From positions 5,047 through 69,046 of the forward strand of contig JAUVZJ010000003.1 of assembly GCA_030602585.1 (NCBI GenBank): a DNA stretch of 64,000 nucleotides, given 5' to 3'. The stretch comes from Candidatus Methanophagales archaeon (GTDB taxonomy: Archaea > Halobacteriota > Syntropharchaeia > Alkanophagales > Methanospirareceae). Of this stretch, positions 7,422-52,198 are shown piece by piece. Every line of letters starts with the position of its first letter. Position 1 is the first letter of the stretch. The translations under genes were made by a program, and so were the position numbers. Below the pieces are notes generated by a model. The model was not told the origin of the DNA. It saw nothing but the letters and a program-made list of their open reading frames with translations, and ran no database searches.

Positions 7422-9863
7422 CTAACTAATTATTACCACTTTTACTTCCGTGCCTTCAACATCAATAATATCACCCTCGCTGCTTTTAATTTCACTCATA
7501 CTTTTGCACAGCTCCACCTTCGTTGCCGTCGCATTCTCTATATCCGCGGTATCCAGACTTTCCGCATCTACGTATATCTCTATTTTACCCAGCGGTGCAC
7601 TTAGCGGAATACCACGCTCAGATTTGTATCTTCTGACTGCCCGGGCAATATCAGCGATTAAGTCTCCCTCCTTCTCCGCTTCTGAGTCAATCATATCCGG
7701 CTTTACCTCCAGCCATTTCGCCTTATGCACGCTCTTTTCTCTTTCTCCTTTTGCGATGTAGGAATGCATCTCTTCGGCATAAAAAGGAATGAAAGGTGCA
7801 AGCAGTTTAGAAAGCGTATCGAGCGTCTCATACAATGCATATTTAGCGGATTCCTTATCTTCCTCCCCCGACCGTCCATATAACCTCGACTTTACCAGTT
7901 CAACGTAATCATCTGCAAGCACGTTCCATGCAAATGCTCTTATATCCTTCATCGCCTCGTCGAACTTGAAGTTCTCCATCGAGTCCGTCACCGACAGGAT
8001 GAGCTTGTTCAGTTTCGAGAGCAGCCATTTATCAACAACGCGTAGATTTGCCTTCCCTTCTTCGTATTCATAATCCGATAGGTGAATCATAGAGAATCTG
8101 AGAATGCTCCAGAGTTTTTGCATGAATTTACTCGCGGCTACTATATCCTTCCACCGGAATTGCACGTCTGAGCCTACCGCACCGCCAATTGCCGCCCACT
8201 GCCTGAAAACATCCGCACCGTGTTTTTGGATCACCTCGTTTGGTGAAATAACGTTATTTCTCGATTTGCTCATCTTATACCCATCCTCACCCAATACCAT
8301 CCCGTTTATTATGATGCTACGCCAGGGTATTTTCTTGGTAAGAGCGAGAGAGCGAAGGATGGAGTAAAAAGCCCACGTTCTTATGATGTCATGTCCCTGT
8401 GGTCTCAGTTCTACGGGTTCATATTCAATTCCTGACGATGCGTTGAGGTCCCATCCAGCCGCCCAGAGCGCGGTTAGCGAAGAGTCCATCCACGTATCTA
8501 ACACGTCTTTCTCACCCTCGAATTCTGCACCGCCGCAATTAACACAGGGCGCATTCGGGCTTGTCATCAAAGGGTCCACGGGTACTTCGTCTTTCTCGGC
8601 AACCTTCACGGCACCACATCTTTTGCAATACCAAACAGGAATAGGCACGCTGAAAATCCGCTGCCGCGATATACACCAGTCCCACTCCATGGATTCAACC
8701 CAATTTTTAAGTCTGATGAAGAAATGCGCCGGATACCATTTTATCTCACTCGCCGCTTCTATTATCTCATCCTTTCTCACACGCACAAACCACTGCCGCG
8801 TAGAAATGATTTCAATTGGTGTTTTACACCTCCAACAAACACCCACGTTTTGTTTCAGCCTTTCACGCTTCTTAAGCAACCCTTTTGCATTCAAATCCTC
8901 TATTATCTTCTGCTTGCATTCTTCTACGCTTAACCCCTCATATCCACTTGCTACTTCGGTCATCCGCCCTTTTTCGTCTATCGAAGCCTTTAAGGGAAGT
9001 TTATGCAATTGCCACCATCTCACATCCTGCCGGTCACCAAAAGTGCATATCATCACAACACCGGTTCCAAACTCCGGGTCAACGCTTTCATCTTCATATA
9101 CCGTCACTTTATGCTCAAATATCGGCACTTCCAGTTCCTTACCCATGATTGTCTTATACCGATCGTCATCAGGATGCACCGCAACGGCAACACAACTCGC
9201 AAGCAGTTCTGGTCTCGTAGTCGCAATCTCTACATAATCCGCTTCGTTTTCTACTCCTACCTTTCTGAACAGTACATAATTCAAATAAGCAGCTCTATCT
9301 TCATATTCCACCTCTGCAAATGCGATTGCAGTCTCACATCTCGGACACCAGTTCACAGGATGTTCTGCTTGATATATTAACCCATCATGATACATTTTTA
9401 AGAATGAAAGCTGAGTATATCTTTTGTAACGGTCGTCCATCGTAACATACTCCTTGCTCCAGTCTATGGACATGCCAAGCCTTCTCATCATTCCCTTCAT
9501 CTGCTCTATATTCCCGCTCGTAAGTTGTCTGCAAAGCTCTCGGAACTCCTGCGGGCTCACCTGATGCTTGGATATGCCGTGCGTCTCTTCTACCTTCACT
9601 TCCGTCGGCAGCCCATGACAGTCCCACCCCTGCGGAAACATCACCTCGTAACCTCGCATTCGCTTATATCGAGCGATGAAATCAATGTAGCACCAGTTTA
9701 ACGCATTACCTATGTGGAAATCACCGGTAGGGTAAGGTGGTGGCGTATCTATGATATAAGGCGGCTTATCCGAAGGCGCATCGAAATAGTATAGCGAATC
9801 GTTCCAGCTCTCCATCCACTTCTTCTCTACTATCTCCGGTTTGTATTTCTTTTCCATTCCCAT
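7422..9863 (-). CDS. valS: Valyl-tRNA synthetase (archaeal type)
   Basis: [26 protein letters not shown]. Confidence 0.97.
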
Positions 9864-9934
9864 GCGCTCTTTGAATCTCCCCTATTAAGATTACTTTATT
9901 TGCTTTTAAAGATTGTATATATTTTTGAAGAGCT

Positions 9935-10306
9935 ATGCGAAAGATACTCAGCAAACCGCAAAAAGAATATAAGCAGTGCATGGTAATCCGAGAAGATTTG
10001 AAGCTTTCAAAGGGTAAGGCAGCAGTGCAAGCCGCTCATGCTTCTATATTGAGCTATGAACTCGCTTCTATGCGTGATAGAAAGAGTTGGAAAGAGCAGG
10101 GTCAGAAGAAAGTCGCTCTGAAAGTGCATAGCCTTGAAGAGCTATACAGCGTACGCGATGACGCTGAGAAGCTGGATCTGCCGTGTGCAATTGTGGAAGA
10201 TGCAGGGCTTACCGAAATTCCACCGGGAACGGTGACTGCCCTTGGAATAGGGCCTGCACGCGCTGACGAGATAGATAAGGTAACTAAAGATCTGGAACTG
10301 TTTTAA
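9935..10306 (+). CDS. pth2: Peptidyl-tRNA hydrolase Pth2
   Basis: GKAAVQAAHA, DAGLTEIPPGT.T.LGIGP. Confidence 0.95.
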   Translation: MRKILSKPQKEYKQCMVIREDLKLSKGKAAVQAAHASILSYELASMRDRKSWKEQGQKKVALKVHSLEELYSVRDDAEKLDLPCAIVEDAGLTEIPPGTVTALGIGPARADEIDKVTKDLELF

Positions 10307-10328
10307 TGGTGGGGGGTGGACGAACGGC

Positions 10329-10943
10329 ATGAAGAAATACCTGCTTAGTGCTTCTAAGGAAGGACCTACAAAACTTTTTATCGGCGGTCTGCACGGAAAA
10401 GAAGGTTTATACACAGCACCTATTCTTGTGCGTTTGGCAAAGGAGGAACTATACTCTGGAGAGGCGATAATCGTCCCCAGCCTTGTCGAAAACAGCAAAT
10501 ACATAGACGTTTTATCCTGGGAATACTACCGTAGCAAAGAAGGCATGAATTTGATTCGCCTTATCGAAAAATACAAACCTTCTTTTTATTTCGAGCTACA
10601 CGCTTATGGAAAGCAGTCATATTCCAGGCTTACTGACCCAGAACGAGAAAAGAGAATAGGAGTTCCTCCTTTCGTTGATTTGCGAGTAGGGATTCTCATA
10701 GGGTCTATCGCACCTATACTGAGGAGTAAATTCAGCGAGAACGATTTTTGCATGACCATAGAAGTCCCAAATTGGAAAAGCGATAAAGTTAGAGCGGAAA
10801 TTTTACAGATTTTGAGGCTTGCACTAAGTAAAGAAAAGAGAGAGGATGTGATGGAGGCGCTTAGAATGAGGTATCCGATGCAAATAAAAAAGGCGGAACT
10901 GCTGTTTCGACAATACTACCGTAACAGGTTGAAACCGTTTTGA
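10329..10943 (+). CDS. DUF2119-family (carboxypeptidase-like) protein
   Basis: LFIGGLHGKEG, YFELH motifs typical of this methanogen family. Confidence 0.7.
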   Translation: MKKYLLSASKEGPTKLFIGGLHGKEGLYTAPILVRLAKEELYSGEAIIVPSLVENSKYIDVLSWEYYRSKEGMNLIRLIEKYKPSFYFELHAYGKQSYSRLTDPEREKRIGVPPFVDLRVGILIGSIAPILRSKFSENDFCMTIEVPNWKSDKVRAEILQILRLALSKEKREDVMEALRMRYPMQIKKAELLFRQYYRNRLKPF

Positions 10944-11240
10944 GTGTCAATGTTTATAGAATCTCCTCTCAAACTCATCCCATTACGCTGTCAGAATTGC
11001 TTGCGTGAAGCATAAGCATATCAACTAAAAATCCCTCTTCTTACACCCTTCACTTCAAAGCCAGTAAGGAGGATAAAAAAAGTCATGGCGCGGTTGACCC
11101 TTATTTATCTTTCTCCCCGACTTTTTCTTCTTTCCAATATCAAGGTTTGTTTTTATTTTTATATTAATTATGCCTTCTCATATAAAAATAGTTTTTACAT
11201 AAAAAAGCTTTTAAATACTCGGTTACAATAAGGATATACG

Positions 11241-11531
11241 ATGAAAATCGAAGATGATCTTTTAAAGGACGTCCGTGTACTTTTGCATCCGATAAGGTTT
11301 AGGATTGTGAAGCTGCTTGCTGAGAAGCCGATGCACGTAAAAGAGATAAGTAAAGCGCTGGGAGAAGAAAGGCGGCTTGTTTCTTATCATCTAAATATTA
11401 TGGAGAAATATGGGTTCTTGAAAAGTGATTATGAAATATCTGAGCTGCCGAAGTTAAAGGGGAAAGCGATAAGGAAATACAGGGTAACAGCGAAATTGGA
11501 AGAGATGATTTTATCGCTTAAAAAGATTTAA
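11241..11531 (+). CDS. ArsR-family winged-HTH regulator
   Basis: LLHPIR..IV.LL, SYHL..MEKYG. Confidence 0.75.
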   Translation: MKIEDDLLKDVRVLLHPIRFRIVKLLAEKPMHVKEISKALGEERRLVSYHLNIMEKYGFLKSDYEISELPKLKGKAIRKYRVTAKLEEMILSLKKI

Positions 11532-11619
11532 AGTTCATTAAACATGCTTAACTTTTTATAGTCATGGTAACATTCAATATATGCTTTTTTGCCTTCGTTT
11601 GCGTAATTAGGGATGCTAA

Positions 11620-13545
11620 ATGGTAAAAACTAATTTCTCGCTTTTTCCTTTCTCTTCGATAAGAAAAGGGCAAAGGGAGTTTATGGAAGACGTTAAGGAT
11701 GCCGTAGAGTGCGGGAAAATCCTTGTCGCTCATGCACCTACCGGGATAGGGAAAACCGTTGCTGCTCTCGTTCCTTCTTTACAATATGCCGTCGAAACCG
11801 AAAAAACGGTCTTTTTCCTCACTTCCAAGCGCAGTCAGCACAAAATTGCGGTTGACACGCTAAAGTTGATAAAAAAGCATGCGAAACTCGATTTCGTGGC
11901 TGTTGACGTTACTTCAAAGCAATCCATGTGCCCAAGAGCGACGTCCGTATACCAGGAGTACTATTCCGTATTCAACGAATTTTGCAAGTCCGAACAGAAG
12001 AATAAAAGGTGCCGTTATTTCTTGAACCACGATGAAGAAGCGCTTCAGCGGATAAGAGATGAGATAATGCACGTGGAGGATTTATGTAGCTGGTGCACCA
12101 GTAGAGGTGTATGTCCTTACAAGGCGGCTCTGGAGGTGGCTGAAAATGCTGATGTGCTCGTTTGCGATTATAATTATCTCTTTTCCGCAGGCATCACAGA
12201 AAAGGTGCTGGAGAAAATAGAAAAAGGGCTGGAGGACCTTATTGTAATCGTTGACGAAGCTCATAACCTGCCAGACCGTATAAGGAACAATCTCAGCAGT
12301 GAATTGCGAATGAGCACCGTAACAGGTGCAGCACGTGGTCTCCGCCATACAAACCGTGAGATGCATGGAAATCTTATGGAATTGGAAAGGATTTTCACTA
12401 AATTGGCTATGGAAGCGAGTAAAAACAATAAGGAAGAAATAAACGTGGATAAGGGCTTTCTGCTGGAAGAGATGGAGAAGGTGTTGAGAAGGCGAATAGA
12501 AGCGATGAGTTATGAAGATTTCATAGACTCGCTTAAAAGCATTGCCGAAGACTTTGAGACTACGAGAGGCGTTAAGGCTAAGGCTGCGGACGGCGGGAAA
12601 TATAAAAACGAGATAGTGCAGAGGAACGTTCTCAGTGTTGCGGATTTCCTCGATGGCTGGCGAACAAGAGAGAAATGCTTACGGATTTTTTCGCTCTCGC
12701 AGAAGGAAAATCCATCCCTTTACTTCAAACTGCTCGACCCCTCGGTAATAAGCGAACCTATATTCGCAAGGGCGCATTCAACCATAATGATGAGCGGCAC
12801 GTTATGCCCAACAGAGATGTATGCCGATGTTTTAGGCGCAGCTCCTGATAGGATAAAAGGAAAAGAAATAGTTCTGAGGGAGTACAAATCGCCTTTTCCA
12901 AAGGAGAACCGGGTGATTGTCGTTACAAAAGAGCTTACAACGAAATATACGAAAAGGAGCGAGGAGATGTACAGGAAGGTAGCCGGGAAGATTGCCGAAG
13001 TGGCTAAATACGTAAGAGGCGGCATGGCTGTCTTCTTTCCTTCTTATGCGCTTCTAAAAAACATTTCTGCGTATTTACCAGAGGGAGTAAGAAGAAGGAC
13101 GATAGTAGAGAGGAGAGAGATGAAGAAAGAGGAGAAAAATAGGTTATATGAGATGCTGAGGGAAGATAATGAGGGAATATTACTTGCCGTGCAGGGAGGT
13201 TCGTTTTCCGAAGGCATGGATTATGAATCCAACACGCTAAAGGCGATTATCGTGGTTGGATTGCCGTTAAGTCCGCCAACGCTGGAGGTAAAAACGATAG
13301 AAGGCTATTATGCAGGTAAATACGGAGCGGAAAAGGGACGGCTTTACGGTTATCACTACCCTGCGATTACAAAGGTGCTGCAAGCGGCTGGTAGGGGCAT
13401 AAGAAGCGAGCAAGACCGTTGCATCATCATTCTGATGGATTACCGATTCGCACAATTCCCGTATAAAAAATGCCTGCCCTCGGATTTCAATATGACCTTT
13501 ACAGATAGAGCGGAAGAGTTCTGTATAAATTTCTTTTCAAAATGA
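11620..13545 (+). CDS. xpd: XPD/Rad3-family Fe-S DNA helicase
   Basis: APTGIGKT, DEAH, Fe-S cysteines (MCP..FCK..CRY..CPY), QAAGRGIR. Confidence 0.9.
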   Translation: MVKTNFSLFPFSSIRKGQREFMEDVKDAVECGKILVAHAPTGIGKTVAALVPSLQYAVETEKTVFFLTSKRSQHKIAVDTLKLIKKHAKLDFVAVDVTSKQSMCPRATSVYQEYYSVFNEFCKSEQKNKRCRYFLNHDEEALQRIRDEIMHVEDLCSWCTSRGVCPYKAALEVAENADVLVCDYNYLFSAGITEKVLEKIEKGLEDLIVIVDEAHNLPDRIRNNLSSELRMSTVTGAARGLRHTNREMHGNLMELERIFTKLAMEASKNNKEEINVDKGFLLEEMEKVLRRRIEAMSYEDFIDSLKSIAEDFETTRGVKAKAADGGKYKNEIVQRNVLSVADFLDGWRTREKCLRIFSLSQKENPSLYFKLLDPSVISEPIFARAHSTIMMSGTLCPTEMYADVLGAAPDRIKGKEIVLREYKSPFPKENRVIVVTKELTTKYTKRSEEMYRKVAGKIAEVAKYVRGGMAVFFPSYALLKNISAYLPEGVRRRTIVERREMKKEEKNRLYEMLREDNEGILLAVQGGSFSEGMDYESNTLKAIIVVGLPLSPPTLEVKTIEGYYAGKYGAEKGRLYGYHYPAITKVLQAAGRGIRSEQDRCIIILMDYRFAQFPYKKCLPSDFNMTFTDRAEEFCINFFSK

Positions 13546-13651
13546 AAAAATGAAATAGCAAAGCGCTTCTTCAATTTGCACTTTGCATTTTGCACCGGGT
13601 TATATTTGCCTATTCCTCAGGTGAGATTTTTGATTTATAGTAGAACTAGAA

Positions 13652-14029
13652 CTACAACTCCTCCTCAAGCCCTTCGAGTTCTTCACCGAACTCCTCTTCT
13701 ACTTCTTTCTCCAGCTCAGTATCAGCGTCGGTACCTAAAGCAGCTTCTATTAACTCCCTTATGGAATTCCACGTTGCAAATGCCTTTTCCTTATCATAAG
13801 GGAAATTAAAAGACTTCCTTGCCCAGTCGCTTTCCACTATCTTTTTACCTTCCATCCTTCGCACCCAGTGCTGCTCTATGGATATAAACTTACCATATTG
13901 CCCCTCTTTTATAAGGCACTTCCATACTTTCCTTGGACTACCATCCTCATTTTTCATAATCTCCCTATACCCGACATCTTTTAACGTTCTTATACTCGGT
14001 CTTATTTCGCTCATGGCTTCTTCTTTCAC
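13652..14029 (-). CDS. Hypothetical protein with acidic C-terminal tail
   Basis: 125-aa ORF after RBS-like GGTGA; no motif recognised. Confidence 0.6.
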   Translation of the reverse strand: MKEEAMSEIRPSIRTLKDVGYREIMKNEDGSPRKVWKCLIKEGQYGKFISIEQHWVRRMEGKKIVESDWARKSFNFPYDKEKAFATWNSIRELIEAALGTDADTELEKEVEEEFGEELEGLEEEL

Positions 14030-14090
14030 CTATACCCCTTATCGCTTTATATCCCTATTTATATTTTTATTTTTGTTAACTACATTAAGT

Positions 14091-15101
14091 TTATGAGTAA
14101 ATCCTTATTATATCGGAGAGAATAGCACTTGCCGCTTCGATAGGTCCTGCGCCTTTTCCGATGACCGCGATATCGCCAGCCAAATCTGTTTTTATGGTTG
14201 CAACGTTCAGCGTGCCTCCAACGTTCAGCGGGTCTTCTTTTGGAACTAACCGGGGCGCAACTTTCAGGCATCCCTCCCTATCCACTTCTCCTATCAATTT
14301 TATCATGTAGCCTGCATCATTAGCCAGCTTCAGTGCATCAGGTGTTATCTCCGTGATGCCTGTTACCTCTACATCCTCATAAGTCGCATTCATATCAAAA
14401 ACGGAATTAGCTAAGATCACGAGTTTCACCGCAGTATCTATTCCTTCAACATCTTTGGAAGGGTCAGTTTCAGCTATTCCTATCTCCTGCGCCTCCTTTA
14501 ACACATGCTCGTATGGTAGCCCTTCTTCTGCCATCCGCGTTAGAATATAGTTGCAAGTGCCATTCAAAATGCCCTCTATGGATATTATCCCGTTGCCTGC
14601 GAGATTTTCCCGTATCAGCGAAATTATCGGCATAGCACCGCCTACCGCTGCTTCAAATCTTATTTCCTTTCCTCGCTTCGCTGCGAGTTCCATCAACCTT
14701 CTATACTCTAACGCCAGCGGACCTTTATTCGAGGTCACCACATGTCTATCGGATTCCAATGCTGTAATTATATGCGTTAATCCCGGCTCGCCATTCTCGA
14801 CGTTCGTTGGCGTTGCTTCTACCATAATCTCGTGCTCTATCTCTTTTATTACATCCCGGCTCGTCATATCTTCCGGCTTTTCCCCTGTCTTGAGCTTCAT
14901 TATCTCATCTTCACTCAGTCCATTCTCATTTACAATAACACCTCTCAAGTCCGCTATGCCGACAATTTTTATATCTATACCGTGTTTTCTCGCTATCTCC
15001 TCACGTTTCCGCCTTATTACTTCCGCTACGCCGCGCCCTACGTTCCCAAACCCGATTATCGAAATCCTTACCGTTTTTGGTTTTGTCTTCATTTTCCACA
15101 C
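14091..15101 (-). CDS. hom: Homoserine dehydrogenase
   Basis: [35 protein letters not shown]. Confidence 0.95.
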
Positions 15102-15109
15102 ACTCCAAA

Positions 15110-15601
15110 TTAAACCGATGAGATAACCATGATGCCCTTCTTGTTCGCCGTACGCTCTAATATACCCAGAGCTTCTCTCAGTTCTTCTTTTCCTATTGCA
15201 CTGAGCGTAACCGAAGCAGAGGATTTCTTATCCACGCCGGGCATGGAAAGAGAAAGCTCCACCACTTCCGCAAATCCCGTGCTGTCTATACTATCTATCG
15301 TCTCTCTTATATCAGAATGCACTATATGCCCGATTAGCAAAACAACCATTGATTCCTTCAGTCGCTCTTTCCCTATTCTTACCACGTTCACGCCTCTTTC
15401 CTTTAACATTTCCACCAATCTATCCAATCCCCTTTCCTCTATCTCAAGTACCAGTTGAACAGGTATTCGCCCTGAAGGTGTCTTTTTATCACGCTGATGC
15501 AACACGCTGAGAATATTACCTCCAAAATCCGATACCGGCTGCAATGCAAGCACTAACTGACCCGGTATGTCTTTCAGTTCGATGTCCATGGATATTTTCA
15601 T
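15110..15601 (-). CDS. ACT-domain protein (hom-associated)
   Basis: [16 protein letters not shown]; conserved neighbour of hom in methanogens. Confidence 0.8.
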
Positions 15602-15604
15602 TTT

Positions 15605-15838
15605 TTATACCTTCATCCCCTTCCTCACAAGTTCGACTTTTGAAAACTTAAAACTCATCTCTGCAACTGAAGAAGGACTTAACCTCTTTTTCGCATCCAG
15701 TATCTCTATTCCAATTATTTCGTTATTTTTATCAAGATCAATGATTATCCCTTCCCTGATCTCCTCGCTTATTTCATATTCCCCTTCTCTGAGTTTTATA
15801 TACATTGCATCCGCTTCAGGATCGTATCGTATTTCCAT
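15605..15838 (-). CDS. DUF2283-family protein (putative antitoxin)
   Basis: YDPEADAMYIKL...IIGIEILDA. Confidence 0.85.
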   Translation of the reverse strand: MEIRYDPEADAMYIKLREGEYEISEEIREGIIIDLDKNNEIIGIEILDAKKRLSPSSVAEMSFKFSKVELVRKGMKV

Positions 15839-15842
15839 CTTT

Positions 15843-16079
15843 TCACCTCCTTAAATACCTCTTCGGGTCAGTTCTATACGCAGAAACAACAGTTATTTTG
15901 TCTTCCTCCTTTTCATAAATAACCCTTAACAGTTTATTATCAAATACTTTGTGTGCTATTTTCCGATTACCACACCCGTTAACAACCTCTGTTGGATTTT
16001 TTATAGTCATTTCCACTTCTTTTTTACTTATTTTCCGCTCCTTTATTTGGTCCTCTGCATGTTTGTAATAGTTTATCAT
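15843..16079 (-). CDS. DUF4258-family protein (putative BrnT/RelE-like toxin)
   Basis: Y.KHA..QI.ER.I, LRVIY....ITVVSAY; paired with DUF2283. Confidence 0.8.
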   Translation of the reverse strand: MINYYKHAEDQIKERKISKKEVEMTIKNPTEVVNGCGNRKIAHKVFDNKLLRVIYEKEEDKITVVSAYRTDPKRYLRR

Positions 16080-16126
16080 TCTTTATATTTCATAGCCCTT
16101 TTCTCTTAAACTCATTCTAAATATCC

Positions 16127-17833
16127 TCACACCTCCACGCGCTCGAACAATTTCTTCGGCTTTTTCAGTGTTTGTCCACTCGCTATCGGCACCATCATCT
16201 CATCAAGCTTCACCGAATGCACGTCACTTTCCATGCCCAATTGCGACCATACTTCTTCCATCTTGTCCGGCATCACCGCCTCCATTAATATACAAACAGC
16301 TTTTATTATTTGCAGCACGTTCTTTACTATTTCCTCACATCTTTCTCTCTCTTTTTCACCCTTTTTTATCAAATGCCAGGGCTCTTCTCGCTGAAAAAAA
16401 CTGTTTCCAAAATCCGCCAGCTTCATCGCCGAATCAACGAGCTTCTTGAATTCGTATTCCTCCACCGCTTTTATCACTTCATCCCTCGTCTCTTCTATCT
16501 TGCCCAAGACCTCCTCTTCTATATCGCCTTCGGGAACCACGCTGAAATTTTTATACGCAAATGATACAACCCGCTGGACGAGGTTTCCCAGAACCGCCAA
16601 TAGCTCATTGTTTACACGCATGGAAAAAGAGTCCCAGGAGAAATCCAGCTCCTTCGTGTGGCTTGATTGCGCCACTAAATAATACCTTAACGTATCGGGA
16701 TGGAATCGTTCTAAAAACTCTTCCACCCATACCACGTCCCCCCTGCTCTTTGAAAACGTCTTTCCGTCTATTTTCACCATACCCGAAGCAACGACGGCAT
16801 CAGGCAGTGAATAATCCGCTCCTTTTAGCATCGCAGGCCAGAATATGCAGTGATGATATATAATGTCCGTGCCTATGAAATGCACAATAGTGGCTTGGTT
16901 TTCCGTCCAATATTTCCGCCATTCATTCTCTTCCGTTGTATAATATTTCTTTGGTAAAGCTTTCTTATAAGCCCTTACAGGGCTTGCGGGGTCGTGGGGC
17001 GGAGCCCCACATAAAGAAAGGTTTTTCATCAACTCTTCCGTAAATGAGATATACCCAATAGGAGCGTCAACCCAGACATAAACGACCAAATCATCCCTAC
17101 CCGGGAATTTCACGCCCCATTCCAGATTCCTCGTTATACACCAATCCCTCAGTTCCTTTTTCACCCATTCCTTCGCATAGTTCCTTGCATTTAGCGTCCC
17201 TCCCAATTTATCTAAATATGCAACGAGGAAATTGGCAAATGATGCGAGTTTGAAGAAGAACTGCTCCTGCTCCTTGAAATCCGCTTCGCTTCCGCAAGTC
17301 TTGCATTTCGGCTCTATTATCTCCCCGGGTTCGAGATGCTTACCACAGCCCTGGTCACATTCATCGCCTCTTGCAATCGCTCCACAGTGCGGGCATTCTC
17401 CCTCCACGTATCTATCAGGTAGAAACCGCCCGCAGGTATTGCAAAACGCCTGTTTTGTCTCCTCCTTATACACATACCCGTTCTCTATCAACTTCTTTAC
17501 TATCTCTTCCGTCCTTCTATGGTTGCTTTCCGAATCGGTTTGTCCATAGTAGTCGAAATCCACGTTCAGTTCTTTAAAAATTCGCTTGAAATGCTCATGG
17601 TATTTCTCAACTACCTCGTCTGGTGTGATGCCCTGCGCTTCTGCACTCAGCACAATCGGCGTTCCATGCGTGTCCGAACCACTTATAAAAAAGGCATCAT
17701 AACCCATCTTTCGGAGCATCCTCGTGTATATATCCGCGGGGACGTAAGTCCTGAGGTGCCCTATATGACACTCACCATTAACATACGGCAACGCAGAGGT
17801 TACCAGGACCGGCTTCTCGATTGGTATCTTCAT
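16127..17833 (-). CDS. metG: Methionyl-tRNA synthetase carrying an in-frame repeat insertion; no C-terminal tRNA-binding domain
   Basis: ALPYVNG..HIGH, Zn-knuckle Cys motifs, [14 protein letters not shown]. Confidence 0.95.
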
Positions 17834-17971
17834 TTGTTTTTGGTTAGCGATAGCATCAATATCATATCAAAAATGATAGATTTATAATACTTTTGCTTTT
17901 TAACAACTTTTGATTTGGCAAGTAAAACTCTAAAAACTCGAAATAAAAAATAAAAAAGAGAGGAGAATTAT

Positions 17972-18646
17972 TTAGCCTCTTCTCCTCAAGAGATACGCCA
18001 CTGCCAGTAGTCCTGCAACTGCGAATACTGCCTCGAATCCAGGTGCCTTGCCCTCCCCTTCTGGAACCTCCGTAGTTTCTTCTGGCTCTTCTTCAGCAGG
18101 AGGTGCCGCACCACCACCTAAGGCTGCGATTCCTTTGTAATCAATTGAATTGGCAAATGAGTATAGCGTGTCTCTGTCGCTACTTGTACTGATAAACACC
18201 ATAAATCGGTCGTTTATGCCAACATATAAGCTATAATCATTCGAACCTTTGTCATAAATCTCCCCTGCGGGAAATCCTTTAACCTCTGTGGTCTTTGCAT
18301 ATCCTTCAGTCGATTCCCAGGCATAGAATCCTTGCCATAATGCCCACCATCCAACCTGATAGAACGCAGAATCCATAATTCCTACTTCAGCAGTTATATC
18401 TTCTGCGCCAGATTTTGTGTAACTTTCTGTTACCATGCTCCACGTTCCTTCTTCGATGGTATACATCATCCCAAATGGTTCTTCTCCTTCCCAACCAGAA
18501 GGAGCGGCTGGCAAGAATGCAATCAGCTCACTAAAATGTACCGCTTCTGTTGCTGCACTAACTGTACACAACCCCGTAGCTCCCACAAGGAGCATCACTA
18601 TCAGGACTAAAATACTTATTTCTTTCACTTTTTTCATACACCTCAC
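17972..18646 (-). CDS. PGF-CTERM cell-surface protein
   Basis: Signal peptide; C-terminal APGFEAVFAVAGLLAVAYLLRRR. Confidence 0.85.
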   Translation of the reverse strand: MRCMKKVKEISILVLIVMLLVGATGLCTVSAATEAVHFSELIAFLPAAPSGWEGEEPFGMMYTIEEGTWSMVTESYTKSGAEDITAEVGIMDSAFYQVGWWALWQGFYAWESTEGYAKTTEVKGFPAGEIYDKGSNDYSLYVGINDRFMVFISTSSDRDTLYSFANSIDYKGIAALGGGAAPPAEEEPEETTEVPEGEGKAPGFEAVFAVAGLLAVAYLLRRRG

Positions 18647-18657
18647 CTCCTAATTTT

Positions 18658-18984
18658 TTATTTTGTTTGGGCTTCTGCAAAATCGCCTACAATCGGCAGC
18701 TTATACATCTCTCCCTGATACGCCTTGAACATCAGTATCAACCACAGTATCAAAGATAATATCCCGATCAGCGATGAAATCACAATGCCAATGAAAGGTA
18801 TCCATCCAATTATCCACGCTATTATCATTAGTGGTAGGAACGTTGCGATAGACTGCATTGCATGAAACCGAACGAATTTGTTCTCCTTCTCCAGCACCAG
18901 GAATACAATGCCTGTTAGCCAGCCCAAAACATAGCACAAAAGCCCCGCTATATTCTCTTCCAAACCCATAGATGTTTTTTCCAT
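18658..18984 (-). CDS. DUF4870-family membrane protein
   Basis: GLEENIAGLLCY, FVRFHAMQS, YKLPIVG. Confidence 0.85.
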   Translation of the reverse strand: MEKTSMGLEENIAGLLCYVLGWLTGIVFLVLEKENKFVRFHAMQSIATFLPLMIIAWIIGWIPFIGIVISSLIGILSLILWLILMFKAYQGEMYKLPIVGDFAEAQTK

Positions 18985-19149
18985 TTTTTGCCTCCCAGTA
19001 TTTCATTATTAAAAGGGTTTTTAAACTTTTCGGTTGGGGGCATAATTCATAGACATCTCCTTGCATACCAAAAGTATTGAATATGCACTTTTTCAGGATA
19101 ATTTCTATTAAACAAATACAGGGTTAGATTTTTCTTCGCACCTTTCACG

Positions 19150-19917
19150 TCATCTTGCGAGAGACCCAGGAGCATGAGCAATCTTTATCAACGCCTCTTT
19201 CTCTACGAAATGCAGTTCACCGGGGACGACGAGCACATGTGGAAGTTCACCGAACTCATAGCTCTTCAATGCATTCAAATAATCTGCTTTCACCACCGGC
19301 ATATCCGACCCTGCCCTCGCTATCCCGACAATTATTGATTTTTTCAGCACTTCCCCTTTCCTTTTTTCCTCAACTGCTTCCAGCAGCCTTAACGCATCTT
19401 TTATACGCATCGGAATATCAAGATAGAGCAGAGTATGCAACCCACGCTCTTTGTTTGCTATTATCGTGTCGTATGGCACTTCTGATATAACCCCTTTGTA
19501 AGCTGGAGAGACCGTAGCGGATTTACCAAACTTGTAACTCTGGAGACCGCATACTCCCGCAACCGCCGATGAAATGGAAGGTGCGTGTATTATCCTCGTC
19601 TCTATTCCCATGTCTATCGCTCTAAGCCGCAAATCAACGTGCGTGGTTGCAATCATCGCATCTCCACCGCTAAGTAGAACCACTTTTTGTGTCTTTGCAT
19701 GCTTTAAAATCACCTCCTCCGCATTTTCCTCTATGCCCCCTCGCTCCAACACAAAAATTCGCTTGCCATACACCACCTCCATCCGTTCTACCGTTTTTCC
19801 GCCTAATGGCGAGGTGTAAAATTCGGCATACACTACATCCGCATCTCTTATCGCATCAACCCCCTTCAAGGTTATGTCCTTCTCGTCGTATAATCCAAGA
19901 CCAATAAAAGTAAGCAT
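19150..19917 (-). CDS. dph5: Diphthine synthase
   Basis: MLTFIGLGLYDEKDIT, EFYTS, GD.MIATTH, YKFGKS, GLHTL.YLD; start reset to 19917. Confidence 0.95.
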   Translation of the reverse strand: MLTFIGLGLYDEKDITLKGVDAIRDADVVYAEFYTSPLGGKTVERMEVVYGKRIFVLERGGIEENAEEVILKHAKTQKVVLLSGGDAMIATTHVDLRLRAIDMGIETRIIHAPSISSAVAGVCGLQSYKFGKSATVSPAYKGVISEVPYDTIIANKERGLHTLLYLDIPMRIKDALRLLEAVEEKRKGEVLKKSIIVGIARAGSDMPVVKADYLNALKSYEFGELPHVLVVPGELHFVEKEALIKIAHAPGSLAR

Positions 19918-20000
19918 AAATAAACTTCTCATCTACAAAAAGAAAAGTTTCAGTAACCGAAAAATTTATAATAACGCTCACATAATTATTAAGTGTCAAA

Positions 20001-21137
20001 ATGAAACGATTTGTATGTTTGTTTGTAATCGCCGTTTTAATATGTGCAATATTCCCGGTAATGGCAGAGGAAGAATTGCAAAGTCCGGGATTGCTACCTG
20101 ACCATCCGTTCTACGGAGTTAAAAGGTGGTCTGAAGGAGTTCATAAGTTCTTTACTTTTGATGATGATGCTAAAGCAAGACTGCATACACGTTTCTCTGA
20201 AGTAAGGTTAGCAGAAGCAAAAGCAATGACACAGCTTGGGAAAACGGAGTGGGTTGAAGATTTGATGGAAGATTACGTGGAGGAACTTGATGAGACCCAT
20301 AGATGCATGCAAAGACAGAGACAGAAGGGGGGACATATAATGGATTTAGCCGAGCACATGTGCAATGCAACGGATGAACACGCAGTGATTTTATCTGATT
20401 TAATAGATGAAGTTCCTGAACGTGCAAGACCACGTATAGAGCGTGCAATTAATGCCTCTTCCACGGGGCATATACGGGCATTGGAAGCAATCGAAGAAGA
20501 GAAACCTGAGCGGGCTGCTCGACTTTCTGCTAAATTTGCAGAAAAAAGAATGATACGAGCAAGGGAGATGTTCGAAGTTGGAAGACATGAACAAGCGCAA
20601 AGAATGCTCCGTAGATATAATGAAAGCATGGAAGAAGCTGAAGAAGCAATGAAGATGGCAGAAAAGCGTGGCTTAAACGTTACAGAGTTAGCTGAGCACG
20701 TCGGTAACATGACCTATAAACATATAGAAGTTCTTGAAGCGTTGTTGGAAAAAGTTCCTGAACAGGCTAAGCCACACATAGAGCATGCAATTAACGTGTC
20801 TATACATGGACACGAAACGAGTGTAAATAGAACACAAATGAGAATAAGACGAGTAACGGGTGAAATAGAAAAAACAAGTTGTGAAAGTGATGCCGATTGT
20901 AGAGCGCTAATTTGTCCACTGGTTATTGGCAGTGATACTCCTATTTGCAAGGATGGCAGATGCCTGTGCGGTGGTAAGTGGCAGTTAAATGTAACAGAAT
21001 GGCAAGAACGATTCAACGAAATGCCGGCAAATGTAACACAAAGAAGACTGCAAAGGATGGCTGAAAAATATAACAAGACCGGAATAGGCAGAATAGTAAG
21101 AGAAGCTACAATTCCTCTGAGGGAAAGAGGAACATGA
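20001..21137 (+). CDS. DUF5667-like secreted helical protein with C-terminal Cys-rich module
   Basis: Signal peptide, PGLLPDHPFY.VKRW.E; internal repeat (VPE.A.P.IE.AIN.S); CESDADC...C...C....C.C. Confidence 0.7.
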   Translation: MKRFVCLFVIAVLICAIFPVMAEEELQSPGLLPDHPFYGVKRWSEGVHKFFTFDDDAKARLHTRFSEVRLAEAKAMTQLGKTEWVEDLMEDYVEELDETHRCMQRQRQKGGHIMDLAEHMCNATDEHAVILSDLIDEVPERARPRIERAINASSTGHIRALEAIEEEKPERAARLSAKFAEKRMIRAREMFEVGRHEQAQRMLRRYNESMEEAEEAMKMAEKRGLNVTELAEHVGNMTYKHIEVLEALLEKVPEQAKPHIEHAINVSIHGHETSVNRTQMRIRRVTGEIEKTSCESDADCRALICPLVIGSDTPICKDGRCLCGGKWQLNVTEWQERFNEMPANVTQRRLQRMAEKYNKTGIGRIVREATIPLRERGT

Positions 21138-21157
21138 TAGAATTTCTTGTTATACTT

Positions 21158-21269
21158 GTTTACCGCTGAGCCCGCAGAGAACACAGCGAGAGAGTCAGGA
21201 AAATCATTTATCCTGTTGTGTTTCTCTTTTTTCGTCATTCCAGCGTTCTCCGTGATCTTGGCGGTAAAC
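21158..21269. repeat. REP-like palindrome family B (TTTACCGC...GCAGAGAACAC...GCGGTAAA)
   Basis: Copies at 21158-21269, 27224-27323, 48181-48264, 50118-50206; same core inside the 166-bp MITE. Confidence 0.8.
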
Positions 21270-21513
21270 AAACAGAATTCAGTTTTTATTTCACATAGTT
21301 GAAATAATTTTGATTTATACATCCTGAAAATCTACGCTAAAGGGTTGAAATATGAAAATAACGTCTGAAATTGCTTTGTTGATATGAAATATTTAAATTC
21401 CGAAAGGTTATTATAGGTGGTTAAAGCAAAAGAGTTATACGGATGGACATAAGTTAGGGTAAATAAGATGATGGTCATCTCATCAAGAGGGGGATGATAA
21501 AAAAATTTAGGAG

Positions 21514-22305
21514 GTGATAAAAAAAATGAAAAGAAAAACTTTGGCATTAATGGGGATTGTAATGACAGCAATTTTAGTGCTTTCTGGGATGGTAGTAGCA
21601 TCACCACCAAATCGAGGAACTGACACAGCAAACGCTCCACCAGAATTTGTTGAGGATTTACCAGAAAGTAAACTAACAAAGATAGTTTTCATTAGATATG
21701 CGCCAGGATTTCAAAAAGAAAGACCATGTGATGGTGATGGCGTTTGTGGCCCAGATGAAAAATGGCAGTTTTGTTCTGACTGTTCAAAACCAGGAGGAGA
21801 GGAAGAAAAACCAACAGCTTGTTACGATTTTCTAGCAGGCTCAAAGCCAAGATGGAATTGGGTAGAAGACTATTATTACAGTGATTCAACATTAGAAAAT
21901 CCATCTGATTCTGCGGTATCTACATGGGAAGGGGCCACCTCAGGGGACATATTCGGAAATGGAGTTTCTGAGTCCAATCCGTGGGGAGTCTACGACAACA
22001 AGAACGCAATATCTTTTGGGAACTATGAAGATCCAAATGTGATAGCAGTAACAGCAATTTGGTTCAGAGGAAAGAACATATACGAATACGATATAATGTT
22101 CGACACAGACTACTTTCCCTCTTCTCACATTGATTTGCCGACTGTTGTATTACACGAATTCGGTCATGCTGCAGGATTAGGTGATTTATATGATCCTGTT
22201 TGTGTAGACAACGTAATGTACGGATACCTTAGTGAAGACGAAGTAAAAACAACTTTGCGTGACGGTGGCACTGCCGGTATTCAGACACTATACGGAGAAG
22301 CTTAA
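21514..22305 (+). CDS. Secreted matrixin-like (metzincin) zinc protease
   Basis: HEFGHAAGLGD and Met-turn NVMYG; signal peptide. Confidence 0.8.
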   Translation: MIKKMKRKTLALMGIVMTAILVLSGMVVASPPNRGTDTANAPPEFVEDLPESKLTKIVFIRYAPGFQKERPCDGDGVCGPDEKWQFCSDCSKPGGEEEKPTACYDFLAGSKPRWNWVEDYYYSDSTLENPSDSAVSTWEGATSGDIFGNGVSESNPWGVYDNKNAISFGNYEDPNVIAVTAIWFRGKNIYEYDIMFDTDYFPSSHIDLPTVVLHEFGHAAGLGDLYDPVCVDNVMYGYLSEDEVKTTLRDGGTAGIQTLYGEA

Positions 22306-22433
22306 ACCCTTTTTCTTTTTTTATTTTTTCCTCTCTTTCACTTCATATTCCCCACAACATATCGCTTTTTTAATTTGTCCGCTTTTCGTCATAAAAACGC
22401 CCATCTCGTGCTCATCTATCCCTTCACGACTCA

Positions 22434-23270
22434 TCACGCAGAAGTATCTGTCAAAAAATCAGCAATATTAGAAACCAACTGATTATTATCCAGAACGTTA
22501 TACGGCTCTGTTAAAAAGGTCAGGTCGCCGATAGCCAACACATTCGAACCCGTGAGTACAACGGGTGAATATCGCCCCGGCACTTCTCTTATTGACGAAT
22601 ACGTGTTTTCATCGGTGAATATCACTCCTTTCTCCGAAGGGCTGATTGAACCCGCAGTATAGAAAACCAGTTTATTTAAGTTCTTCGTTATGCCATTATC
22701 CTCAAAATCAGTAAGATAAATATATCTAAAGTTTCCGGCATTTTCCTTTAAGTTGTATAGGTAATCGTTCCGATAGACGATTCCAAACTCTGTTGACAAC
22801 GTATTCATTTTGTCTTTCGATTCTGGCGCAGGTCTGGTTGGGTCATCAATCAGCATCAGCCTTCCACCATTGTCAACGAAATTTCTTATTTCTTCCACTT
22901 CTTCCCATGAGAATGCAGTTGCTGGCGATATAACGATATATGCGCTGGCATTTGCTAATCGCTCTTCTAAGCTCTCACTATCTTCCAGATACTCTATCGA
23001 ATAGCCTCTTGAAATAATTCTATACGCAAGTAGGTTCAATTCTTCTAATTCGAAACCATTATCATGTGATGAATCTATTAGAACAGTTCCCTCCCCCGTT
23101 CCATGCACGTCAATGAATTCGGTCGGAAGATGCAAGGAAACCTGTATATCCTCAATATCACATATATTCATTGGTGGCGCAGAGTATATTCCGCGATAAA
23201 AAACCAGAGTTTGTGCTCCTATCACAATACATACAATTAGCACCATGAACACTATTTTTCTCATAACCAC
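22434..23270 (-). CDS. DUF4350/GldG-like (IFT52-type) domain protein
   Basis: VLIDSSHDN, FV.NGGRL, VLAIGD; adjacent to S49 peptidase. Confidence 0.6.
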   Translation of the reverse strand: MVMRKIVFMVLIVCIVIGAQTLVFYRGIYSAPPMNICDIEDIQVSLHLPTEFIDVHGTGEGTVLIDSSHDNGFELEELNLLAYRIISRGYSIEYLEDSESLEERLANASAYIVISPATAFSWEEVEEIRNFVDNGGRLMLIDDPTRPAPESKDKMNTLSTEFGIVYRNDYLYNLKENAGNFRYIYLTDFEDNGITKNLNKLVFYTAGSISPSEKGVIFTDENTYSSIREVPGRYSPVVLTGSNVLAIGDLTFLTEPYNVLDNNQLVSNIADFLTDTSA

Positions 23271-24128
23271 TCACACACCCATATAAAAATAGTAATTATT
23301 AGTTGGCACTGCGTTTGTTTTTGTTTTAGATAAGGTATCATTCGAATACGAAGATATGAGTTCTGGAGCATATTCGTTGATGCTTACCGCTTTGTTAATA
23401 TCAACAAATCCGTAATTGGCAATATACGCATAACTCGCTGCCTTTTCAATCGCATCGGACCTCGTGCCTATCCCATCTATAAGTCCGTATCTCATTCCCT
23501 CGATACCGGTATAAGTCCCCGCCTTGGATAGATCCTCTTTATCAATGTTCAATCTATCACTTCTCTGAGCAATGATAGACTCGACAAAATATTGCTTTGC
23601 CATCTCAACCTGGCTTGTATAATGCTTTTTTGACTGCGTTGACTTGTATGGACCAGTAATTATGCGTTCCTCGTCTAAACTCTCTGGCTCGGGAAGCCAG
23701 GAAATAACACCTATACCGCCAACTTCGGATGATGGTTTCGCATAAATAAAATTTGAAGCTGCTGCAATGTAATATCCCCCCGATACACCCCTCTCATCTA
23801 TTGAAGTAATGACCGGTTTTTCGCTTCTGAGTCTAAGTACCTCAAGATAAATTTCCTCAATCTTTGAAACCTCTCCACCCGGACAATTCATATCTAACAC
23901 AACCGCTTTTATTGAATTGTCGTCTCTTGCATATCTTAACGTCTTAACAATTTCATCCTTGGTTTCTTCGTCCATAATATGCGTATCAATGGTAATTACT
24001 CCGACATTCGGTATTTTTATAAAGAAATTGAAGATAAAAATCGCTATGATTATTGAAACAATAGCCAAAAAAATATACGAGTTACTTAAACGCGAGATAC
24101 CACGAAGCGAAACTCGACTGTTTGTCAT
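23271..24128 (-). CDS. sppA: S49-family signal peptide peptidase (SppA-like)
   Basis: IKAVVL..NCPGG, SGGYYIA, VGGIGV. Confidence 0.85.
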   Translation of the reverse strand: MTNSRVSLRGISRLSNSYIFLAIVSIIIAIFIFNFFIKIPNVGVITIDTHIMDEETKDEIVKTLRYARDDNSIKAVVLDMNCPGGEVSKIEEIYLEVLRLRSEKPVITSIDERGVSGGYYIAAASNFIYAKPSSEVGGIGVISWLPEPESLDEERIITGPYKSTQSKKHYTSQVEMAKQYFVESIIAQRSDRLNIDKEDLSKAGTYTGIEGMRYGLIDGIGTRSDAIEKAASYAYIANYGFVDINKAVSINEYAPELISSYSNDTLSKTKTNAVPTNNYYFYMGV

Positions 24129-24230
24129 ATTGTTCTCCCATTAATGTTATGTAAACCACTATTTAAATAAAGATGTGTTTGACATTTGTCAACGGCTTTC
24201 TGTGTCTTTTTGTTTTTTCCACTCTTTTAC

Positions 24231-24396
24231 CTTGACATTGTCAGATTAACCGCAGAGTTCACGGAGAACGCAGAGGAGGTAGGTTTAGAGGTTTAGGTTT
24301 TAGGGTTACTAATACCTGACAACTAACCCCTAACCCCTTATTTTCTCTGTGAACTCAGCGTTCTCGGCGGTAAATTTTAAATATGACAAAGTCAAG
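24231..24396. mobile_element. 166-bp MITE copy 1
   Basis: Imperfect TIR CTTGACATTGTCAGATT / CTTGACTTTGTCATATT; flanking TTAC duplicated; long internal hairpin. Confidence 0.85.
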
Positions 24397-24456
24397 TTAC
24401 TTCGTATCACCATAACATATCGCTTTTTATCTTCCACCATCACATATTAAAAAAAC

Positions 24457-26152: not shown

Positions 26153-26328
26153 CACACTTTTTCTTTTTAGAAAAAAGAAAACCTGTGCTAAAAGAAAAAC
26201 AAAAAAGTTCTTTTGGTAAAGCTTTTCTTCCTAAGAAAAGGTTTGTGCTAAAAGAAAAACTAAGAGAATGTTTTTAGTCGAGGTTTTTACCGAAGGTAAA
26301 AAAGTTGTTGGTAAAGCTTTTTTACGCA
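26153..26328. repeat. AT-rich composite repeat family C (AGAAAACCTGTGCTAAA / TTTGGTAAAGCTTT..AAAGGTTTG)
   Basis: Also ~35176-35275, 36079-36214, 36757-36822 (inverted), 52021-52210, 53150-53232, 16946-17023. Confidence 0.75.
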
Positions 26329-35020: not shown

Positions 35021-35452
35021 TAGACAAAAACGAGAAGAAGCAAGGTAATAACTGATGCGTTCAATGGTTCAATGGCGGCATGTAAAGAAAAGAGGTGAGA
35101 GTGCTTTATTGCATTTTTCTATTTGCATCAATTTGCACTCTTTTTAACTACAAGAACACACAGATTTTCATACAAACTTTCTTTTGAAAAGAAAGTGTTT
35201 TGTGAAAAAGAAAACCTGTGCTAAAAGAAAAACTAATTTCTTTGGTAAAGCTTTCTTTTTTAAAGAAAGGTTTGCTGTCGCATACCTTGTGCTCAGGAGC
35301 AGGAAGTAAGAGCAAAGCGAAAAAAAATCGAAAAAGTTTTTGAGGGGGAAAGGTTTTTATATTCTTTTTTATATATCTTTTATTATTGTTTAATTGAATA
35401 TGACTATGACTACAGTGGCAGAGATTCCAAAGGAAAGTAAGAGGTCTTTAAA

Positions 35453-36078: not shown

Positions 36079-36220
36079 CACTTTTTCTTTTCAGGAAAAA
36101 GAAAACTAAGCCCTTACAGGGCTTGCGGGTAAACCCTTACAGGGTTTTCGGAGTGGTAGGGGGCGGAGTCCCTACATGGGGCAGAGCCCCACAGAGGTAA
36201 AAAAGTTGTTGGTAATTAAT

Positions 36221-51946: not shown

Positions 51947-52198
51947 GTCAACACCACCTCGATATTTATATTTAGTATCTGTATAACTCTTTAAAAATCA
52001 CAAACTCCAATAGATACCAATAAACCCTTTCAGGGCTTGCGGGGTCGTGGGGCGGAGCCCCACAGTGCTAAAAGAAAACATTGTTTCTTTGGTAAAGCTT
52101 TCTTTTTAAAAGAAAGGTTTGCGATGAGCCAGAAGATAGCGAAGCAGGCGCAGCATTTTTGGTCAAACTTTTTTTAAAAGTTTGTTGATCAAACTTTC

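Follow-up and report, generated by a model that had tools for sequence, protein, structure and literature searches.

A nested palindromic repeat in frame within the methionyl-tRNA synthetase gene of an ANME-1 archaeon: a probable selfish passenger

In-frame palindromic elements and the MetRS insert

Rickettsia palindromic elements (RPEs), reportedly described by Ogata et al. in 2000, lie in frame within protein genes, and selfish DNA of this kind is the classic oddity of Rickettsia. RPEs, as well as intragenic MITEs (transposable elements of the miniature, inverted-repeat type) that make in-frame fusions (e.g., ERIC), have been reviewed (PMC10969869). Here, we describe a candidate archaeal counterpart, located in a 64,000-nucleotide stretch (hereafter the window) of a Candidatus Methanophagales archaeon (assembly GCA_030602585.1, contig JAUVZJ010000003.1, positions 5,047 to 69,046 of the forward strand). 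Within the window, the gene for methionyl-tRNA synthetase (MetRS) contains an 81-nt insert composed of two small repeats, in which a 44-nt element (the GC element) is nested in the loop of an AT-rich hairpin (the AT hairpin). We consider this insert to be a tolerated, translated selfish passenger that is not needed by MetRS, much as RPEs are in their hosts, and give that reading a probability of roughly 0.78.

The gene and the parts of its insert are as follows.

16127..17833, minus strand: methionyl-tRNA synthetase gene, 568 aa (open reading frame with HIGH and KMSKS-type (FSKSRG) motifs)
16946..17026, minus strand: composite insert of 81 nt, 27 codons (K270-K296), in frame (from the sequence and from alleles)
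16946..16966, plus strand: left part of the AT hairpin, TTTCTTTGGTAAAGCTTTCTT (exact copies at 35237 and 52084)
16956-16966, plus strand: stem half AAAGCTTTCTT of the AT hairpin, which pairs with 17013-17024
16967, plus strand: single A between the AT arm and the GC element (from the sequence)
16968..17011, plus strand: GC element TAAGCCCTTACAGGGCTTGCGGGGTCGTGGGGCGGAGCCCCACA, 44 nt, in the hairpin loop (from repeat copies and folds)
16971-16983, plus strand: hairpin 1 of the GC element, GCCCTTACAGGGC (from the fold)
16994-17010, plus strand: hairpin 2 of the GC element, GTGGGGCGGAGCCCCAC (from the fold)
17012, plus strand: single T between the GC element and the right arm (from the sequence)
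17013..17024, plus strand: right arm of the AT hairpin, AAAGAAAGGTTT (from folds and compensatory changes)

A preliminary description of this DNA had placed ~26 extra residues, or 78 bp, in frame within MetRS. The frame is as described, but the segment measures 81 nt and 27 codons when counted from its first Lys codon. If the frame is read through, the encoded peptide is rich in Pro and Lys. The 81 nt are predicted to fold, whether as RNA or as single-stranded DNA, into a three-way junction, made of an outer AT stem and the two 7-bp GC hairpins, at -27 kcal/mol (z-scores of -3.4 and -4.5).

The nearest relatives of the window MetRS are the MetRS proteins of ANME-1/Methanophagales metagenome-assembled genomes (MAGs). 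Alignment with these orthologs confirmed that the segment is extra, given that the loop between the DAPIGY and HFIG motifs spans 56 aa in the window and 23-32 aa in most of the ~90 ANME-1 relatives, a difference of 26-29 residues from most of them. Only seven other relatives have a long loop (33-56 aa), four of which carry element sequence, and the loop also varies in length among relatives that lack any element. When compared with the MetRS of Pyrococcus abyssi (PDB 1rqg), the window protein matched in two pieces (E 2e-117) that break exactly at the reported segment, and residues 273-300 have no counterpart in that structure. The gene is under purifying selection (dN/dS, the ratio of nonsynonymous to synonymous divergence, is 0.13 at a dS of 0.19 against the MetRS gene of L001, with the insert excluded; the L numbers are our own labels for related loci), and its synteny is conserved with L001 and L006. 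An AlphaFold2 model based on a 40-sequence alignment was confident overall (predicted local distance difference test score, pLDDT, of 90; predicted template-modelling score, pTM, of 0.90) and superposed on 1rqg with a template-modelling (TM) score of 0.88. Its pLDDT fell below 50 only at residues 276-278 and 280-301, a segment flanked by helices 253-275 and 300-309, which the model places between two helices in the second half of the Rossmann fold. Modelling, which had been proposed as a check, thus predicts that the insert is a disordered surface loop on an otherwise complete MetRS.

Like RPEs, the ANME-1 element is a small palindrome with many in-frame, stop-free copies in unrelated housekeeping genes at fold-compatible sites, and with other copies lying between genes. 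RPEs had been named as the precedent for the insert, aptly so, as in ANME-1 MAGs at least 17 gene families besides MetRS contain the GC element in frame, including those of AlaRS and LeuRS. Unlike RPEs, however, the GC element resides in an archaeal host, is 44 nt long rather than roughly 100-150 bp, and is used in three of its reading frames, on both strands; furthermore, the ANME-1 elements nest in each other's hairpin loops and double as a homing site for group II introns. Host and size likewise set the element apart from RPE-1 to RPE-10, to which no resemblance was seen, without formal comparison to their consensus sequences. It is not a member of the Rickettsia RPE families.

Several other described systems share part of this architecture. 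The GC element is short and non-coding and has hairpins near both ends, as do the PATEs of Haloquadratum walsbyi and the REP elements, which are related to IS200/IS605 (PMC3119063). Neither the GC element nor REP/PATE elements have terminal inverted repeats or an evident target duplication. Yet PATEs have not been reported in frame within genes (PMC3119063), and the conserved 5' TAAG of the GC element is the one feature that points to a target or cleavage motif. The SMR-A elements of Haloquadratum resemble the ANME-1 elements in that they encode no transposase, move in a manner that is unknown, and insert preferentially into palindrome-bearing elements, which leads to nesting; they differ in being ~110 bp long, in having inverted terminal repeats, in targeting PATEs and IS605, and in that no in-frame copies within genes have been described (PMC3119063). 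Finally, the composite resembles MITEs (PMC10969869) in that inverted AT-rich arms surround a core and that it is multi-copy and sometimes intragenic. Unlike in a MITE, no fixed target-site duplication was found, and the arms also exist on their own as a separate hairpin repeat. It is the composite that carries inverted AT arms; the GC element by itself has no terminal inverted repeats.

Our searches of the open full-text literature gave no report of ANME-1 repeats or of palindromic elements lying in frame within genes of Archaea. It therefore seems that such elements are unreported in Archaea, although their mode of action is already known from Rickettsia. If the pattern holds, ANME-1, a group of uncultured archaea central to marine methane oxidation, would represent a second independent natural experiment on how far essential enzymes tolerate random loop insertions, the essential hosts concerned being three aminoacyl-tRNA synthetases, PolD, ABCE1, and others; such insertions would also seed new protein segments. 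There are practical consequences as well, in that repeats of 44-81 nt break short-read assemblies inside genes, inflate the apparent indel variation of marker proteins, and can lead astray both the annotation of ANME-1 MAGs and their phylogenomics. Concrete handles on a mechanism of archaeal mobilisation are offered by the nesting and by the homing site for introns.

The insert in DNA and in related MetRS alleles

The insert was traced in Logan contigs of two DNA runs (X1 and X2) that contain 99% of the words of the region. In both runs, a unique contig covering 16600-16975 links the 3' portion of MetRS to the element, and another, covering 16995-17400, links the element to the 5' portion of the gene. 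The left junction was seen also in X3, a 2015 run of another study, and no contig joining the MetRS flanks without the insert was seen in those DNA runs. Summed contig depth over 16951-17031 was ~9,000-25,000 in X1 and X2, compared to ~150-240 on the MetRS flanks. Between them, the organisms of this sediment metagenome therefore have a very large number of copies of element-like sequence, and it is because the element is so extremely multi-copy that contigs break inside it.

Such a depth (~25,000, against 148 on the flanks) and the breaking of short-read contigs within the element are what would be expected if a multi-copy repeat had been wrongly threaded into MetRS, or if two contigs had been joined at the repeat. 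We regard an assembly artefact of this sort as extremely improbable. Unique contigs from two runs enter the proper ends of the element from either flank, with the left junction recurring in the 2015 run; the open reading frame is uninterrupted and its two halves model as a single MetRS; and variants of the element occupy the same codon in related alleles. In addition, in an independent MAG (L001, GCA_017883965.1), the identical codon of a 95%-identical ortholog (94% at the nucleotide level) is occupied by the same composite, and the two inserts are distinguished by one change in 81 nt, which is synonymous.

The allele series was assembled from the DNA of related MetRS genes and from a single metagenome scan with a pattern spanning the MetRS/arm junction. 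The scan returned 66 matches; 65 were unrelated chance matches, and the remaining one (L154) proved decisive. The loop lacks any element in L007, L009, and L010, and contains only the left AT arm (KNRSL) in L006. L004 and L005 have a diverged hairpin alone (KNRSLEKNALSEN), the divergence amounting to 24% in L004. L154 has an intact AT hairpin in frame and no GC element (KNLSLKKKALPKK), and the DNA of this hairpin (AAACCTTTCTTTAAAAAAGAAAGCTTTACCAAAGAAA) equals the intergenic repeat. The same AT arms are found in L002 and L003 with a second AT hairpin nested in the loop, and in the window and L001 with the GC element nested there instead. All of these variants are in frame and stop-free. The composite, nested, and in-frame character that the preliminary description had ascribed to the insert is thus supported by the hairpin-only and differently nested alleles, of which L154 has its bare hairpin at the very same codon. 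At the MetRS site, the AT hairpin very probably preceded the GC element.

Further copies of both repeats are present elsewhere in the window.

35237..35273, plus strand: uninterrupted AT hairpin, intergenic, 3-nt loop (exact arm copy)
52084..52120, plus strand: uninterrupted AT hairpin, intergenic, 3-nt loop (exact arm copy)
26215..26243, plus strand: member of a second AT-hairpin subfamily, GGTAAAGCTTTTCTT-CCT-AAGAAAAGGTT (from a family search)
52021..52064, plus strand: GC element, intergenic, separated by 20 nt from the AT hairpin downstream of it at 52084 (1 mismatch; chance expectation 0)
36107..36193, plus strand: degenerate tandem cluster of GC-element modules (from the sequence; comparable clusters in L041, L062, L096, and L104)

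Exact copies of the 21-nt AT arm are located at 35237 and 52084 (chance expectation 0.01; three matches were seen in 0 of 100 shuffles), which agrees with the hairpin copies previously noted at ~35237 and ~52085. The GC-element copy noted at ~52025 was likewise found, with its one mismatch, but that at ~36111 turned out to be the degenerate cluster, with no clean copy. Tandem clusters of partial GC-element modules, consisting of repeated hairpin-1/hairpin-2 units, occur in the window at 36107-36193 and in L041, L062, L096, L104, and L019, and the modules may duplicate or recombine locally. No Rfam family was detected in the window, the single match being to a group II intron in L007. The AT-hairpin family is found in many ANME-1 MAGs.

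In-frame copies in other genes and their transcripts

When GTDB species genomes were scanned with 20 nt from the core of the GC element, at least 116 stretches were identified, almost all of them in ANME-1-type MAGs. Seven pattern matches in bacterial genomes (Alloprevotella, Prevotella, Imperialibacter, and Rhodocyclaceae) were due to chance, and one match in an ANME-1 MAG (L105) lacked the rest of the element as well. Among the matches listed, the sources are about two dozen MAGs, mostly labelled Methanophagales/ANME-1 or with vaguer archaeal names; a few are labelled Syntrophoarchaeum, Bathyarchaeia, or 'Nitrosotalea', all as deposited and unverified. The element was not found in viral contigs. 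Its consensus is near-identical in MAGs that are distant from one another, and of 126 copies, 113-120 retain the 5' TAAG. About 15 copies, among the matches listed, share the composite architecture, in which the GC element interrupts the AT hairpin at one and the same junction. In these 15 composites, compensatory changes occur at four of the 11 pairs of the outer stem, and the three-way junction has 94.7% of its cells paired, with five pairs changing on both sides, a result equalled in none of 500 shuffles.

The MAG deposited as 'Nitrosotalea sp. BE2011_44_29' (DYFG01...) contains many GC elements (L015, L018, L060, L075, L082, L090, L116, L118, and L126). They include in-frame copies in AlaRS and in Lhr, and the Lhr site is the same as in the Methanophagales MAG Kmv05. 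The genome looks like a mis-assigned or mis-binned one of the ANME-1 type.

About a quarter of the copies found (~28, among the matches listed) lie within long open reading frames, which Pfam identified as real genes, in most cases with domains to either side of the element (two had no Pfam match). A scan of other coding sequences for the repeat had been recommended, and it revealed the at least 17 host families besides MetRS that we mentioned above. They include PolD DP2, the Lhr helicase, LeuRS, AlaRS, ABCE1, GMP synthase (GuaA), aspartate-semialdehyde dehydrogenase (ASD), NAD(P)HX epimerase/dehydratase (Nnr), an FAD-linked oxidase, RmlD, TiaS, MGMT/Mut7-C, a CDP-alcohol phosphatidyltransferase, and others. 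The FAD-linked oxidase and RmlD genes contain the full composite, in the same frame as in MetRS. Two in-frame GC elements are found in a single gene of ANME-1-THS, the NAD(P)HX epimerase/dehydratase (YjeF_N + Carb_kinase) at L040:2193-3938, at residues 91 and 413 of its open reading frame.

When copies with at least 80 aa of open reading frame on both sides were considered, 23 of 25 kept one open frame, the two exceptions being a tandem cluster and a chance bacterial match. The GC element is thus multi-copy, palindromic, and both intergenic and intragenic, and its intragenic copies keep the frame and are free of stops, as in an RPE-like class. Three of its four open frames are in use, so that the same three peptides appear in many enzymes; the fourth is never used among the matches listed. 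One copy is read in the frame that normally opens with TAA, the T of which has been lost. For ASD and GuaA, the orthologs of a pair have the element at different sites, with each gene serving as the empty-site control for its partner. The net gains at these filled sites were 39, 45, 48, and 48 nt, with ragged junctions, and the GC-filled MetRS loop exceeds the hairpin-only loop of L154 by 42 nt; all of these sizes are multiples of three. Such a frame bias and the stop-free copies are the pattern expected if the element is translated and selection removes insertions that break the protein.

In AlaRS, the element is a clean 14-residue loop insertion relative to PDB 2zze, and fold-compatible surface sites were found in both hosts that were examined in this respect, MetRS (by its model) and AlaRS (against 2zze). 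In PolD DP2, the corresponding region is variable when compared with PDB structures, and the edges of the insertion are not delimitable.

Could the element be removed from the transcript, by an archaeal bulge-helix-bulge intron or some other excision, to leave a protein without the insert? Archaea do splice a few mRNAs at bulge-helix-bulge motifs, and the element is both strongly structured and associated with group II introns. We nevertheless think excision very improbable. The predicted fold is a three-way junction with no bulge-helix-bulge (i.e., no 3-nt bulges flanking a 4-bp helix), and intragenic copies that consist of the GC element alone have no outer helix. Frame and stops would be irrelevant to an excised segment, and yet 23 of 25 copies are in frame and the net sizes are multiples of three. 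In two metatranscriptomes that contain the organism of MAG 1244-F3-H4-B6, RNA contigs enter its in-frame ASD element from both sides, and no contig skipping the element was seen in these two data sets. Such contigs show presence, not absence, and may stem from DNA carry-over; the retention of the ASD element in RNA lends weak support to its being translated. Four RNA runs (X22-X25) match relatives of the window's organism, among which X22 and X23 represent a P0003-type relative without the insert; an apparent 'skip of 102' that resembled splicing is this relative's own loop sequence. Taken with the conservation of frame in 23 of 25 copies and the purifying selection on the host gene, the ASD contigs lead us to infer that the insert in MetRS is translated.

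Group II introns, movement, and history of the insert

Bacterial group IIC introns target stem-loops, such as terminators and attC sites, and insert at a fixed few bases after the hairpin. Group II introns are present in seven copies of the GC element, immediately after hairpin 1 and TTGCGGGG (i.e., after ...CAGGGCTTGCGGGG). These copies are L007:11729-13060, which is located just downstream of MetRS, L008, L012, L017, L027, L049, and L114. At L007, Rfam recognises Intron_gpII at 12948-13022, and the element's second hairpin follows the 3' end of the intron; on the 5' exon side lies a composite (AT arm and hairpin 1), whereas the 3' side belongs to another subfamily of the element. Since the introns occupy a fixed place in GC elements, the element is a group II intron homing site, which suggests that intron homing is linked to its spread. 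Like group IIC introns, those of ANME-1 sit just after a hairpin; they differ in that their target is a dispersed repeat that is also found in genes. A recurrent gene beside the elements was sought in 0.9 Mb of loci, where no family had more than five members and no obvious autonomous partner was seen.

ANME-1 (Methanophagales) genomes are home to two families of small non-coding hairpin repeats, the first an AT-rich hairpin of ~37 nt and the second the 44-nt GC element with its two 7-bp hairpins (TAAGCCCTTACAGGGCTTGCGGGGTCGTGGGGCRGAGCCCCACA). In the history that we propose, an AT hairpin would have inserted immediately behind the EELM codons of MetRS, into a surface loop whose length varies naturally, where it by chance fell in one of its two stop-free frames, such that the enzyme survived. 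The GC element would later have come to occupy the hairpin loop, whether it inserted there directly or arrived through gene conversion by one of the many composites pre-formed elsewhere in the genome, and would have added 42 nt with the frame kept once more. Across the lineage, frame-breaking insertions would have been purged, and in-frame, stop-free copies in permissive loops would remain. Both the neutrality of the insert and the order of the insertion events are probable rather than observed.

Several observations weigh against this reading of the insert. First, its junctions are fuzzy, with no fixed target duplication in filled/empty pairs. Second, an RNA run from the same sample contains none of this organism's MetRS gene. 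Third, the spanning reads that the preliminary description had called for are matched at both junctions between flank and element, which are present in contigs, but the central ~20 nt, where the Logan contigs break in the repeat, is bridged by assemblies only. Fourth, the carriers of the element do not form one clade in a DNA tree built without the loop (approximately unbiased (AU) test, p = 0.0003), and L154 is sister to the element-free L007 (100/100 support, 95.8% identity). Fifth, the insert differs from that of L001 by one change in 81 nt, when ~15 would be expected at a synonymous rate of 0.19.

Some of these points bear directly on how the insert arose. A simple cut-and-paste mechanism with a fixed target duplication is not supported by the fuzzy filled/empty junctions of varying net size; composites have TA at both ends, which is compatible with a TA duplication without proving it. 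A history of a single insertion is ruled out by the AU test and by the grouping of L154 with the element-free L007. As the carriers are not monophyletic in the tree, and given the relationship of L154 and L007, recombination between lineages, repeated replacement of the loop, or repeated loss must have been involved. Around the MetRS loop, L154 resembles the window's lineage, and its difference from L007 looks like a short recombination patch. The two genes (L154:11281-12948 and L007:10001-11653) have completely different loops in otherwise closely matching sequence, that of L007 being GDKEEGEREQEW.

The insert is too conserved for a neutral loop, which implies either ongoing gene conversion or selection on the sequence. 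Conversion by the abundant genomic copies would account for the conservation, and also for why composite junctions are identical and why the tree is mosaic. Selection would be at work if the insert had been exapted, i.e., if its sequence were kept for a function, be it as an mRNA structure, by slowing translation or by binding a factor, or as a peptide tag common to many core enzymes. One synonymous change in 81 nt, at a dS of 0.19 in the rest of MetRS, is consistent with this idea, as are the near-identical consensus in distant MAGs, the hairpins kept by compensatory changes, the use of the same three peptides in many enzymes with one open frame avoided, and the persistence of the AT-hairpin allele for long enough to reach 24% divergence in L004. 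However, L007, L009, and most of the clade are close relatives that thrive without the insert, the element resides in unrelated enzymes, at sites that differ between orthologs, as would be the case for random survivors, the conservation could equally come from recent spread or gene conversion, and the peptide is predicted to be disordered. We therefore consider exaptation unlikely, and continue to favour a tolerated passenger. Likewise unlikely, in our view, is a broader scenario in which the GC element is an actively spreading mini-element of ANME-1 and close kin, its dispersal tied to homing group II introns (e.g., by an intron reverse transcriptase inserting ligated-exon RNA), and in which selection keeps the in-gene copies near consensus, thereby repeatedly writing the same three peptides, or an mRNA three-way junction, into core-enzyme surface loops, where they would serve as a common module for regulation or interaction.

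Two further arrangements of the GC element were observed. The flanks TCTCGTGAAAT ... ATGTGTAATCTTGTGGTTA surround a GC core in one orientation in L078, L091, L092, and L103, and in the opposite orientation in L021, L039, L060, L076, and L085, which suggests either site-specific, two-way insertion into another repeat or inversion. In a subfamily represented by L029, L030, L046, L053, L064, L070, L109, L115, and L122, the element always has ...CTGTGTTAAT to its left and GTTAATCTGTGTC... to its right. The two flanks thus share GTTAAT as a direct repeat, which reflects either duplication of a 6-nt target or insertion into a target that was already tandem.

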